Below, in pieces: positions 1-5,379 of a DNA stretch of 5,383 nucleotides. The DNA comes from a virus (taxonomy: Duplodnaviria > Heunggongvirae > Uroviricota > Caudoviricetes): IMG/VR virus record IMGVR_UViG_2609459799_000011. The stretch is one strand, 5' to 3'. A program made the position numbers and the translations under genes. The notes beneath the pieces are model-generated. The model worked only from the letters and a program-made list of their open reading frames with translations, was not told the origin of the DNA and ran no database searches. The stretch's first letter is position 1. Each line of letters opens with the position of its first letter.

Positions 1-91
1 GAGTCCCCACCTTGGTTAAACAACGCTTTGGCTCACAGTTTACAACAGGCATGTTAAGCCGTCTCGCAGAGATGTTATTGCAGCGAATATA

Positions 92-185
92 GCGCGGCGA
101 TTTTTTTGATACCGATTTGCATTTCATTTGATACCGCTGAAAAACGCCGATACGCAACTTATTTGATACTAAATCGGCGCTTTTC
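92..185. repeat. Direct repeats of TTTGATAC(C/T) at 105-113, 127-135 and 162-170, flanked by inverted AAATCG(G/C)CGC-like elements (92-103 and 171-182); candidate protein-binding or end-repeat array.
   Basis: Read directly from the sequence: three 9-bp copies spaced 22 and 35 bp apart; GCGCGGCGATTT (92-103) is a near reverse complement of AAATCGGCGC (171-180). Confidence 0.5.
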
Positions 186-215: not shown

Positions 216-953
216 TCATTCACTCTCTTTCAAACCAGTTTTAACTGTTTGGGGTTTTGGGTAAGGCTGGACTTTGAATAGCTTTATGTTGAGGCGTTTT
301 CTGGCCCTCTTGTTCAGAAACCGGATGTAACGAAACTGTCGGAACTTATGAACACTGGCTCTGTCGATATTAGCCCTCAGATGTTCACCTCGTTGTCCGC
401 CTCGTTTAATGGCATTCCTGCAAATCTCGTGATACCACTCGCCATCAAGTTCATAGAATGTTGATTCATGGCTGCCTACATAATCAAAATTGCTTGCCTG
501 ATACACGACACCAAGACAGCCACAACGCTCATCTGCAAACGACTGAACCCACTGTACCTGCGGATAAAGCTGTCTGATAAGTTTGAGTGCGTAACTGATG
601 GCCCTTGATTCGGAGTTTCTCGGCATACAGTCATGCAGCCATAACCGGTTAAGCTCCATATATTCGCGGTTCTGCGTACCGGTTACGACGCGCGCTCCAC
701 TGTTTGGATTAAGGGCATAACCCCATTGCATTACGCCAACCAGCTCTCGTTCTGAAAATATACCCAGATGAAGGTAGGAGTTATTTACGAAACGGTGGCT
801 GTAATGTTTATTGACGATGACCAGTCGGGCCAGCCAGCAACTTATTGTCTCAACCCGTAACTCACGGGAGCCATAACCGACGATATTGTCGTTATAGAGA
901 ATAAGTTCAGGCGTGCTGATGATACGGGATGTAACTTGTTTTCTGTTCCCCAC
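216..953 (-). CDS. mom: Mom-like DNA modification protein (adenine-modifying anti-restriction function of Mu-like phages), 245 aa, probable GTG start.
   Basis: 245-aa ORF starts with GTG (no in-frame ATG until about residue 75), overlaps the 3' end of the upstream zinc-finger com-like gene by 47 nt in another frame, and has AGGAA 8 nt upstream. Identity is from synteny with com and gin; Mom sequence itself is not recalled. Confidence 0.75.
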
Positions 954-1107
954 GACAGGATTTCCTTGTGTATGTGGGGTGCTCTGTGGCGCTCGGAGAT
1001 GTGATTTGATTGAGGGTTTTACAGCGCGGACATTTTACTTCCAGATAACTGAAACTGGCCCGTGCCAGTAACTTGTTGCAGTGTCGGCACCGTATGTTTC
1101 GATACAT
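907..1107 (-). CDS. com: Com-like zinc-finger translational activator of mom, 66 aa.
   Basis: ATG start with AGGAGG about 10 nt upstream. Cys pairs CRHC and CPRC resemble the Mu Com zinc finger, and the N-terminus ([14 protein letters not shown]) resembles recalled Mu Com (MKSIRCKNCNKLL). It overlaps the mom start. Confidence 0.75.
948..979 (-). promoter_or_regulatory. mRNA stem-loop sequestering the mom start codon and Shine-Dalgarno (translation-inhibition structure).
   Basis: On the minus strand CCCCAC (plus 974-979) pairs with GUGGGG (plus 948-953), which contains the GUG start; the loop holds AAGGAAA, and CAAGGA can pair with UCCUGU inside it. Confidence 0.5.
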
Positions 1108-2575: not shown

Positions 2576-4630
2576 TTACGCGTTATTCACTTCCACCACG
2601 ATACTGTCAATCAGTACCGGGTAAGTCGCATTTTTAGTGATATCGGTCACGCGCAACTTGTCTGCCGTAAACGTGCCGACCGGAGACTGCGACAGCATGA
2701 ATGGTGTCCCGTCCTTACCATCAATGACCGGCGTCACCTCAATACTGTTGTTACCGGCAAAACGGAAGCCCAGCGTATGCCATTCGTTATTAAATGCGCC
2801 GAATGACCCCAGCTTCGTGTTCTGCGCCGTGTTTCCTTTGTGATACATCACGTTAAGGTCTGTGGCATCGCTCTGTACGTAGAACGATGCCAGCAGGTTA
2901 TGACCGGCATTTCCTTCCAGAGTAACCCCTTGCGGCAGGGCAGAAACCGGCCAGTACAGCGCCAGTGCGTACTGATTAGCCGTAAGCGCGCCATCGAGTT
3001 TAAAACGACAACTGACAAGACCACCTTTACCCAGCAGGTCCGCACCATTACCAGCATCATGCTCAAGGTACCAGGGGGCTCTTCCTGTTTCCTTGGTCAG
3101 TTTCATTGCCTTACCCCCGCTGGCTCCGGCATCATCCACGATTTGAGCCTTGCCACCTCCGGCAGCCCAACCCTGTGGTGTCAACCGTCCTTCAGACTCA
3201 GATGCCCGGTAAGCAAATAGCGTACTCATCGTCGTGGTGTCTGCGGGTGGCGTGGACGGTTTTGATGGTGTATCAGGTGACGGCTTCTCATCCGGTGGTG
3301 TCACGGTCTGCCCGCGCATCAGTTCAGCCGTGCGCCCTGCATGGAGCATAATAGCTGAGGCCAGACGGTCTGAAATGACGCCCCTGCGTGCCCATGAGCT
3401 GAAATGGCTGTCACGCTGTGTCGAAACAAAACTGCCCTGGGTTCGGGATGCTGCACCGTAATACCCGACAGCCACAATATCCGGGTCTTCCGCCGGAGCA
3501 TTCGTTGGCGTGCTCTGTCCATTCTCATCCGTCAGGAACGGTACAAAGAAAATTTTCTGTGCTTCCTTGCCTTTGTAGCCACCGTATACTGCCTCATATT
3601 TATCGGTGCCAGCGTTTTTCCAGTAATACGTGGTATCACCGCAAATCCACGGCACCGTGGTGGCATTTCCACTCACGCACTGCGCAGCAAGCGGAGCCAG
3701 GTCAGTTCTGAACTGCTGAACCATGGCCGTGAATAAACTATTATGCTGCTGGCTTCCTGAGGCAAGGTCTGCCTCTCCCTGCATCCAGACCACAGCCAGA
3801 AGTTTGTTTTTCGGGTTTTTCGCCAGCGCGACTTTGGTGCGGCTTACCAGGTCCTGATACAGAGGTTTACCGGCCCCCCAGCGTGAAGAATCAGCGGAAG
3901 CACCGCTGGCCTCACTGAATGAGCCGTCGGCTCCAGTGGTGAATGCTGACCCGCCACGACAACAGGGCACCAGAAGTATCCCGGCATTCTGTGGGATATA
4001 GGGAAGCAGTTTTTTGGCAATATGCAACCCCTGACCGACAGTCCCGTACTGGCCTTTTGCCAGATCAGCTTTCGGGTGGTTTATCCCGCTCATATCCTGA
4101 ACATCATGCAGGCAGTGGTCTGCCGGAATGATGTCGTTGTATGTACACGACGTACCGTTGGGCGTTACCGTACTGCGGCGTGCCAGTTGCTTAATGCGTG
4201 GGTCCGGGCGGTCAAACGAATCCGGTAACGGCAGCCCCTCGCCGTAGGCCATGCCATTTGACTGACCCGCGAGAATGACAACAAAGTAATATTCCGGCTC
4301 TGAACTGCTGCCATTCGTGCTACCGGAAGGCCCGGCGTTATCCGGTGCATTCCAGTCGGAGGGCGTGAGCGTTCCGGCCACGTCAGATGTGATTGGAATG
4401 ATGCCAGTCACGCCTGAACTGGTGATTTCTGCACTGGGATTACCGGATACCGGCATTACCCATAATGGCTCTTTCGTGCTGAAGCGGATCACGCAGTCTG
4501 CGAAGGTGATCCCCCCTTTATTACCCGAAGGGCGGAAAGGGCTTTCAATAAATGCCACCGTGCCACCGGCAACCTTGACTGAAAACTCTCCGGGCATGGC
4601 GGAGAGCATTTTCCACTTGGAGTCTGACAT
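2576..4630 (-). CDS. Putative carbohydrate O-acetylesterase of the SASA/SGNH-hydrolase type (phage NanS-p-like), 684 aa, with a Pro/Thr-rich linker and lectin-like C-terminal domain.
   Basis: Motifs LAGQSNG (residues 120-126; Ser124 at nt 4259-4261), WMQGEAD (282-288) and DSH (407-409) resemble sialate O-acetylesterase family signatures as recalled. Linker QTVTPPDEKPSPDTPSKPSTPP is at about residues 441-468 (nt 3227-3310), followed by a roughly 215-residue C-terminal region. No N-terminal signal peptide is evident. Confidence 0.8.
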   Translation of the reverse strand: MSDSKWKMLSAMPGEFSVKVAGGTVAFIESPFRPSGNKGGITFADCVIRFSTKEPLWVMPVSGNPSAEITSSGVTGIIPITSDVAGTLTPSDWNAPDNAGPSGSTNGSSSEPEYYFVVILAGQSNGMAYGEGLPLPDSFDRPDPRIKQLARRSTVTPNGTSCTYNDIIPADHCLHDVQDMSGINHPKADLAKGQYGTVGQGLHIAKKLLPYIPQNAGILLVPCCRGGSAFTTGADGSFSEASGASADSSRWGAGKPLYQDLVSRTKVALAKNPKNKLLAVVWMQGEADLASGSQQHNSLFTAMVQQFRTDLAPLAAQCVSGNATTVPWICGDTTYYWKNAGTDKYEAVYGGYKGKEAQKIFFVPFLTDENGQSTPTNAPAEDPDIVAVGYYGAASRTQGSFVSTQRDSHFSSWARRGVISDRLASAIMLHAGRTAELMRGQTVTPPDEKPSPDTPSKPSTPPADTTTMSTLFAYRASESEGRLTPQGWAAGGGKAQIVDDAGASGGKAMKLTKETGRAPWYLEHDAGNGADLLGKGGLVSCRFKLDGALTANQYALALYWPVSALPQGVTLEGNAGHNLLASFYVQSDATDLNVMYHKGNTAQNTKLGSFGAFNNEWHTLGFRFAGNNSIEVTPVIDGKDGTPFMLSQSPVGTFTADKLRVTDITKNATYPVLIDSIVVEVNNA

Positions 4631-4703: not shown

Positions 4704-4735
4704 TTCAAAAAAGCGTCACGGTACTTTTGGTGACG
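4704..4735 (-). terminator. Weak candidate terminator overlapping the invertase stop codon.
   Basis: Minus strand: stem CGUCAC (plus 4730-4735) / GUGACG (plus 4714-4719) with a 10-nt loop, then C plus UUUUUU (plus A-run 4707-4712). The invertase stop codon lies within the 3' arm. Short stem and large loop suggest it is leaky. Confidence 0.35.
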
Positions 4736-5288
4736 GAGCTGGTGAGGCAGGAAAATAACGATAAAGGGTGGAAAGGCCAATATCAAATATCAGTGCGATT
4801 TGTTTACGGGACTCGCCATTAGCCAGCAAACGGGCGATTTGCTCCCGCTCTTTCTCTGTCAGTTTCTGAGGTCTGCCGCCATGACGCCCCTGAGCACGGG
4901 CAGCAGCAAGACCCGCGCGTGTACGTTCAATAATGAGTTCCCGCTCCATTTCCGCCAGCGCGCCCATTATATGGAAAAAGAAACGTCCCATGGGAGTGGA
5001 TGTATCAATATTGTCCGTAATGCTGCGGAAGTTAACGCCGCGTTGCCGGAGTTCTTCTGTTAAAAGGACAAGGTGCTGCATACTGCGTCCAAGGCGATCC
5101 AGTTTCCAGACCAGCAGGGTATCCCCTGGCCGGAGTCGCTTTAATGCGCGTTTAAGTCCGGGACGCTCCCTTGTCTTACCGCTTATTCTGTCTTCGAAAA
5201 ACAGCTCACATCCTGCACATTCCAGCGCATTTCTTTGTAGCGCCGTATTCTGGTCATTTGTTGACACCCTGATATACCCAATCAGCAT
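4716..5288 (-). CDS. gin: Serine DNA invertase of the Gin/Hin/Pin/Cin family, 190 aa.
   Basis: N-terminus MLIGYIRVSTNDQNT...LQRNAL, the stretch GDTLLVWKLDRLGRSM, MGRFFFHIMGALAEMERELIIERT and a C-terminal helix-turn-helix (LSTLYRY) closely match Gin and Hin as recalled. AAGGAA lies 5 nt upstream of the ATG. The symbol gin is chosen from the com-mom context. Confidence 0.9.
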   Translation of the reverse strand: MLIGYIRVSTNDQNTALQRNALECAGCELFFEDRISGKTRERPGLKRALKRLRPGDTLLVWKLDRLGRSMQHLVLLTEELRQRGVNFRSITDNIDTSTPMGRFFFHIMGALAEMERELIIERTRAGLAAARAQGRHGGRPQKLTEKEREQIARLLANGESRKQIALIFDIGLSTLYRYFPASPAPSPKVP

Positions 5289-5353: not shown

Positions 5354-5379
5354 TTCCTGAAAACCTCGGTTTACGGGAA
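5354..5379. other. gix/hix-type 26-bp invertase crossover site (imperfect palindrome around a 2-bp core).
   Basis: TTCCTGAAAACC-TC-GGTTTACGGGAA; the two 12-bp halves are near-perfect inverted repeats and resemble recalled gixL (TTCCTGTAAACCGAGGTTTTGGATAA). It lies 66 bp upstream of the invertase start. Confidence 0.7.

Follow-up and report, generated by a model that had tools for sequence, protein, structure and literature searches.

In phage Mu, mom and com are the last genes before the right end, which lies ~115 to 130 bp past the mom stop codon. The att-site layout of Mu, part of which is established knowledge, comprises three transposase-site repeats per end, with R1 and R2 abutting at a 22-bp phasing, L1 in a terminal position, and L2 and L3 ~100 to 165 bp inside. 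According to published accounts, the target-site duplication measures 5 bp in Mu and 6 bp in B3. TG-CA termini were described as conserved in all Mu- and B3-like phages until TA-TA transposable prophages were described in Leptospira (PMC8705779, 2021); these elements encode a B3/Tn552-type transposase and generate a 6-bp duplication, and the same study asks whether other bacteria have TA-ended transposable prophages (PMC8705779). The Sp18 family of Escherichia coli prophages has been described as Mu-like, packaged, and not circularized and as occupying strain-specific sites (PMC2669165, PMC7430833, PMC10132054), and these papers leave its ends, binding sites, and duplication length undescribed. 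Papers on SuMu and the Yersinia phages contain no end or duplication data. The prophage family is already known, and a description of its end anatomy was not found in the searchable literature: our search, which lay outside subscription journals and much of the older Mu literature, returned no 4-bp duplication in Mu-like phages and no Sp18-type end structure.

The locus analyzed here is a 5,383-bp stretch of DNA (the window) that reads, from its gene content, as the right-end portion of a reversely oriented Mu-like prophage. As in Mu, mom and com come last; the mom stop codon is at 216 to 218, and mom is the final gene before the right end. Mu gin directly adjoins com, whereas in the window an accessory module absent from Mu intervenes, in which the SASA (sialate-O-acetylesterase-like)/DUF6645 gene of 684 codons sits between the invertase and com/mom alongside DUF826 and DUF1378 genes. 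The remaining open reading frames are several and small, and an Rfam search of the window gave no match. Positions 88 to 215 are very probably the attR of a Mu-like transposable prophage of the Sp18 type that has inserted between sohB and yciK in E. coli, a reading that includes the transposase-site mechanism proposed below. The features are as follows.

1 to 87, no strand: host DNA, the E. coli sohB-yciK intergenic region, an exact match to empty sites
84 to 87, no strand: CGAA, predicted to be the right-hand copy of the target duplication, whose partner would lie ~39 kb away, outside the window
88 to 104, plus strand: right terminus and terminal block 5'-TATAGCGCGGCGATTTT, from the junction of 19 independent insertions
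105 to 113, plus strand: core of candidate site R1, TTTGATACC, 18 bp from the terminus (full site roughly 93 to 114)
127 to 135, plus strand: core of candidate site R2, TTTGATACC, 22 bp after R1 (full site roughly 115 to 136)
162 to 170, plus strand: core of candidate site R3, TTTGATACT, oriented like R1 and R2, at 75 bp from the terminus
139 to 185, minus strand: predicted hairpin with arms at 139 to 151 and 173 to 185 and R3 in the loop, from the inverted repeat and the RNA fold
216 to 953, minus strand: mom (DNA adenine modification), Pfam Mom at 2.4e-77 and 79% identity to Mu Mom
907 to 1107, minus strand: com (translational activator of mom), Pfam Zn_ribbon_Com at 2e-12, overlapping the mom start
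2576 to 4630, minus strand: 684-aa protein with SASA esterase and DUF6645 domains, from a domain search
4716 to 5288, minus strand: Gin-type serine invertase, from a domain search

To locate the prophage/host junction, we compared the window with empty host loci and with other insertions of the same element. Base 1 is the base immediately upstream of the sohB start codon, and positions 1 to 110 matched 5,423 of 5,426 complete E. coli genomes, with the best matches covering 1 to 87 at 100% and then diverging. The empty site between sohB and yciK in one genome (L003) reads ...TTATTGCAGCGAA|AGTATGAC, compared with ...TTATTGCAGCGAA|TATAGCGCGG in the window. Among the matches listed, no complete E. 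coli genome had an insertion between sohB and yciK, none of the matches spanning base 88. We aligned 19 independent junctions, one from the window, two from complete genomes, and 16 from IMG/VR contigs; in these the common sequence begins exactly at T88 and base 87 and all of the flank before it vary; one of the IMG/VR contigs ends exactly at the T equivalent to 88. Because the 19 insertions agree only from T88 onward and the empty sites match 1 to 87, we place the start of the element at T88. In window orientation the element begins 5'-TATAGCGCGGCG..., or in longer form 5'-TATAGCGCGGCGATTTTTTTGATACC, and the right end is TA in 19/19 E. coli copies. A T(A/G)T(A/T)G(C/T)GCG... block is kept at the right ends of relatives in Sodalis, Klebsiella, Edwardsiella, Arsenophonus, Leminorella, and Limnobaculum.

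The original prediction had recognized the end of a Mu-type transposable element in this region, and the right end indeed lies ~130 bp past the mom stop. The leftmost part had been taken for host or flanking DNA; it is host DNA, although it extends through 87, as the empty-site match indicates, and not to about 78. The boundary itself had been set at 73 or 79, 9 to 15 bp away from the real one at 87|88 seen in the empty sites and the 19 insertions, and the TG dinucleotides at 73-74 and 79-80 that were offered as possible termini exist but are host bases, the terminus being TA. Comparison with an uninterrupted host locus, which had been suggested as a check, revealed the expected prophage/host junction but moved its position to 87|88. 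In keeping with an element end, related prophages carried no related sequence left of 73, and similarity stopped at 88.

The prophage part alone was present in about 226 genomes, beside many different host genes, and the host gene at the insertion differed in every copy (for example, elfC, cas3, cas7e, meaB, a motA-like gene, and sorM). Complete copies of 39.2 to 39.7 kb contain Mu-like head, tail, and lysis genes, Mor, Gam, a MuB homologue, and a 696-aa transposase, and their end sequence is identical to that of the window. In complete relatives the transposase has Pfam Mu-transpos_C and HTH_Tnp_Mu_1 domains and a weak rve match; it aligns only locally with MuA, at 21 to 31% identity, and among solved structures it gave only weak matches (E about 2e-4), to retroviral integrase catalytic cores. 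The closest transposases of isolated phages are those of Yersinia vB_YpM_5/6 (79% identity), Klebsiella Kp4866-3 (57%), SuMu (43%), and D3112-like phages (about 30%). The MuB homologue of the family is 49% identical to MuB. Complete relatives thus encode a DDE transposase of the Mu type together with a MuB-type ATPase. No integrase is annotated in the element, whose sole recombinase is a Gin-type invertase, and insertion sites vary, with no sign of the fixed attB core and the tyrosine or serine integrase of an integrase-type prophage. Because the flanking genes differ from copy to copy and a Mu-type transposase and MuB homologue are encoded, we conclude that insertion occurs by transposition and not by site-specific integration. 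Read inward, the left end is 5'-T(G/A)TAACCAGGTGAATCATTTGATACCG, and each of the two variants (TG or TA) was found at several distinct insertion sites. Four of the copies have a RefSeq "tRNA-OTHER" annotation of 80 to 88 nt in the head-morphogenesis region, outside the window (L020, 21830-21909; L031, 21275-21354; L032, 21463-21550; L035, 21075-21154). Independent copies interrupt type I-E CRISPR-cas genes, namely, cas3 in strain 88_1577 and cas7e in strain 143, and other copies of the Sp18-type prophage lie inside Stx phages (E. coli genomes L031, L036, and L002).

We next determined the length of the target-site duplication in complete copies of the family. In 6/6 copies, 4-bp direct repeats lie directly outside TATAGCG...GGTTA(C/T)A, and the fifth base is mismatched in 5/6. 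The repeats and their evidence are listed by copy.

L020: CTAA; the reconstructed empty site equals intact elfC, 120/120 in one gapless piece
L031: TGAA; flanking repeat
L032: GGGG; the reconstructed empty site equals an intact motA-like gene, 120/120 in one gapless piece
L035: TGAC; flanking repeat
L036: CGAA; direct comparison with intact cas7e in L031
Sakai Sp18: TAAA; flanking repeat

A 5-bp or 6-bp duplication with the boundaries moved by one or two bases fits none of the junction pairs, and the 5-bp duplication originally predicted gives way to one of 4 bp. Since 4-bp duplications were found in six complete relatives and the empty site reads ...GCAGCGAA|AGTATGAC, the CGAA at 84 to 87 is predicted to be the right-hand copy for the sohB-yciK insertion. 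The left junction of this insertion would then read ...CACCTGGTTA(C/T)A, followed by CGAA-AGTATGACAAAG; a gap-tolerant pattern search of viral and metagenome contigs for the left junction of the window's own insertion found none. Matching right-end to left-end contigs within individual IMG genomes was mostly unsuccessful, since the flanks are different; the one pair that fit, L009/L023 (TGTT), is tentative.

We then asked what the direct repeats next to the junction might be. The original prediction had placed three of them here, and they are present where it put them, at 105, 127, and 162. The motif TTTGATAC(C/T) has three matches in the 5,383-bp window, all on the plus strand, compared with a shuffle mean of 0.10, and 0/200 dinucleotide-preserving shuffles reached three. 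A repeat finder extended the octamer units to 16 to 23 nt, spaced 22 and 35 bp apart. A complete 39.2-kb copy contains 8 occurrences of the octamer TTTGATAC (0.9 expected), of which 6 are within 172 bp of the two termini. These six all point inward, and their starts are 18, 40, and 75 bp in from the right terminus and 18, 113, and 165 bp in from the left one, so that L1 and R1 are equidistant (18 bp) from their own termini. Multiple repeats, for which transposase binding is predicted, are thus present at both ends of the complete copy and inverted between them. In a cross-genus pattern search that took a single genome from each species, right ends built in the same way turned up in Sodalis (many copies), Klebsiella, Edwardsiella, Arsenophonus, Leminorella, and Limnobaculum, with flanks that differ upstream of the terminal block. 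The right-end octamer positions of 18, 40, and 75 bp are identical in seven enterobacterial genera despite differing spacers; the octamers and their approximate spacing were built into the scan pattern, which left only the terminal block and the distance to the terminus free to vary. The start-to-start distance between R1 and R2 is exactly 22 bp at every enterobacterial end in the 7 genera, in a search that allowed a gap of 13 to 15 nt. We infer that the octamers are the R1 to R3 binding sites of the family's transposase.

Under this model, the DDE transposase, encoded outside the window ~36 to 38 kb from the right end and near the left end, would bind R1, R2, and R3 through the core (A/T)TTTGATAC(C/T) and pair them with the three inward-pointing left-end sites (18, 113, and 165 bp). 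It would nick after the terminal A opposite T88, and the transferred 3' end, at this presumed cleavage position, would be the minus-strand A opposite T88. Joining of that 3'-OH to the target with a 4-bp stagger would yield the 4-bp duplication, predicted here to be CGAA at 84 to 87.

Related right ends also occur in high copy number in two other genomes. They were found on at least 7 contigs of a Sodalis sp. Tcar metagenome-assembled genome (MAG) (L039, L044, L056, L060, L063, L064, and L065) and on the chromosome and two plasmids of Klebsiella sp. WOUb02 (L047, L053, L054, and L061), which suggests either recent transposition bursts or degraded multicopy elements. Arrays that include TTTGATAC were also seen in unrelated genomes, including Firmicutes and other MAGs (L038, L043, L050, L070, L075, and L076), several of which have 20- to 30-nt repeats ending in TTTTGATAC, and Flavobacterium (L037, L040, L055, L062, L068, and L069) has 11-nt tandem arrays, TTTGATACTAC, that contain TTTGATAC.

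Two inverted repeats overlap the same region. As originally noted, AAATCG(G/C)CGC elements are present in inverted orientation: GCGGCGATTT at 94 to 103 and AAATCGGCGC at 171 to 180 are 90% complementary over 10 nt. In the other pair, GAAAAACGCCGAT at 139 to 151 and ATCGGCGCTTTTC at 173 to 185 are complementary at 12/13 positions. Folding of the mom-sense RNA gave a 13-bp stem between an A-run and a U-run (-23 kcal/mol, z = -3.55). The arm bases are changed in the divergent copy L008, in which by eye the stem still pairs, and the Edwardsiella and Limnobaculum relatives have a clean hairpin just inside R3. A simple terminator scan of the window did not call the 139-to-185 hairpin, because its loop (21 nt) exceeds 8 nt, and instead called a weaker palindrome at 198 to 221 that overlaps the mom stop. 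The 139-to-185 hairpin is likely, from its predicted fold, an intrinsic terminator of mom, possibly bidirectional; its arms could instead be protein sites. As a terminator it would shield the end sites from transcription of mom and keep outside transcription from reading into the prophage.

Three other explanations of the region were weighed against this reading. One is that it is a Mu/D108-like end with its terminus at the TG of 73-74 or 79-80, sites of the MuA type (GAAAAACGC among them), and a duplication of 5 bp. TGCAGCG at 79 to 85 does resemble the Mu terminus TGAAGCG, a few megablast hits began at 79-80, and GAAAAACGC is found in Mu R1 too. However, bases 73 to 87 are identical in the empty sites and different in all other insertions, no sequence in the window matches the Mu consensus, and duplications in the family are 4 bp; the megablast starts at 79-80 arise because those flanks resemble the local host flank by chance. 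GAAAAACGC, which had been proposed to resemble a Mu-type transposase site, is present, but it forms one hairpin arm and is not a MuA-type site. A Mu/D108-like TG end is thus highly improbable, being already refuted by the empty sites and the junction alignment. Even less credible is an integrase-type prophage attR, or a degraded remnant whose deletion point looks like an end. The place of the region at a prophage/host junction is all that speaks for it, and it is already refuted: every copy examined is at a different site with a short duplication, no integrase is annotated, the end sequence is the same as in full-length 39.2- to 39.7-kb copies, and Sp18 DNA reportedly undergoes efficient packaging and is not circularized (PMC2669165).

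More plausible than either of these, yet still unlikely, is the possibility that the repeats are sites for mom expression or termination, or iteron-like regulatory sites, and that the end is recognized only via the terminal block. R3 falls within the loop of the hairpin downstream of mom, and transposase binding to the octamers is deduced from sequence. Against a regulatory role, the octamer is mirrored, at the same 18-bp distance, at the left end, which has no mom. In addition, its positions are identical in seven genera even though the sequence internal to R3 is unrelated to that of the window (a comparison limited to right-end sequences), and the layout parallels that of Mu, with L1 terminal, L2 and L3 distal, and R1 and R2 abutting at 22 bp. 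We therefore retain the reading of the octamers as candidate transposase sites in an Sp18-type attR.

The Sp18-type ends share with Mu the number of sites (here three octamer sites per end), the abutting R1 and R2 with 22-bp phasing, the terminal L1, and the placement of L2 and L3; both elements also insert at random with a short duplication, and the MuB homologue and Mom are 49% and 79% identical to their Mu counterparts. The site sequences are unrelated, with the Sp18-type core being TTTGATAC versus TGNTTCAYTNNAARYRCGAAAR in Mu, and the 22-bp Mu consensus TGNTTCAYTNNAARYRCGAAAR had 0 matches in the window at up to 3 mismatches. The noncoding end has no significant similarity to Mu attR. The alignment to the Mu right end that had been suggested for checking a Mu-type end scored only about 2.4 standard deviations above shuffles for positions 88 to 215, so there is no real homology. 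R3 is direct in Sp18-type ends, whereas the Mu R3 match is inverted in a by-eye reading of the Mu right end; the right terminus is TA rather than TG, and the duplication is 4 bp rather than 5 bp. None of the marks of Mu sensu stricto (MuA consensus, TG...CA termini, and 5-bp duplication) was found.

Within E. coli, Sp18 of O157:H7 Sakai and its relatives in Shiga-toxin-producing E. coli belong to the same family, with an essentially identical right end and the same gene order; the window copy, at sohB-yciK, is at a locus other than that of Sp18. The TA-TA transposable prophages of Leptospira share a noncanonical TA terminus on an evidently active transposable prophage (PMC8705779). They differ in having a B3/Tn552-type transposase and a 6-bp duplication, compared with a Mu-transpos_C-type transposase and 4 bp in Sp18-type elements, and in being TA-TA, unlike the Sp18-type left end, which is polymorphic for TG or TA. 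Many Sp18-type copies have TA at the right end only, which sets them apart from the Leptospira TA-TA type.

The right end in the window is an ordinary feature, the attR of a known prophage family, and the end anatomy of that family is a real, if modest, variation on the Mu paradigm. For the window, the prophage/host boundary is fixed at 87|88, the host locus is identified, and a plausible but wrong TG call is corrected. Terminal CA and a fixed stagger are regarded as hallmarks of Mu-type transposition. We think it somewhat probable that Sp18-type enterobacterial phages are a distinct variant of Mu-like transposition, with TTTGATAC-core sites, TA-3' accepted or preferred over CA-3', and a 4-bp stagger. 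If so, they would be the first transposable phages with TA ends to be found outside Leptospira, and in a host amenable to genetics. Shiga-toxin-producing E. coli strains carry the family widely, and its activity is visible in its many insertion sites, which include Stx phages and CRISPR-cas genes. It offers an E. coli system for studying how cleavage and stagger depend on the terminal dinucleotide and on transpososome geometry. The ends also supply an annotation rule for delimiting such prophages, TATAGCG ... GGTTA(C/T)A with 4-bp repeats, by which the annotated Sakai Sp18 feature is a few bases off: in NC_002695.2 (L077, L078) the feature, 5040971..5079729, starts 1 nt inside the left end at 5040970 and ends 5 nt beyond the right end at 5079724.

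Three further observations concern the interior of the window. At 5354 to 5379, a short way upstream of the gene for the Gin-type invertase, TTCCTGAAAACCTCGGTTTACGGGAA is similar to the gix crossover site of Mu (5 to 7 mismatches of 26), and an invertible tail-fiber segment probably starts near 5354 to 5379 and continues beyond the window. A palindrome, AATCGATCGACAAAAACGATCGATT, at 1151 to 1175 contains two GATC sites and lies just upstream of com, an arrangement that may resemble the Dam/OxyR-controlled mom promoter region of Mu. Finally, a plus-strand open reading frame at 1222 to 1521 is near-identical to a 154-aa gene of the relative L036 up to ~1492, past which the window is unrelated to L036 and has a different 68-aa open reading frame at 1514 to 1720. 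The accessory region from 1222 to 1760 thus holds an apparent mosaic breakpoint.
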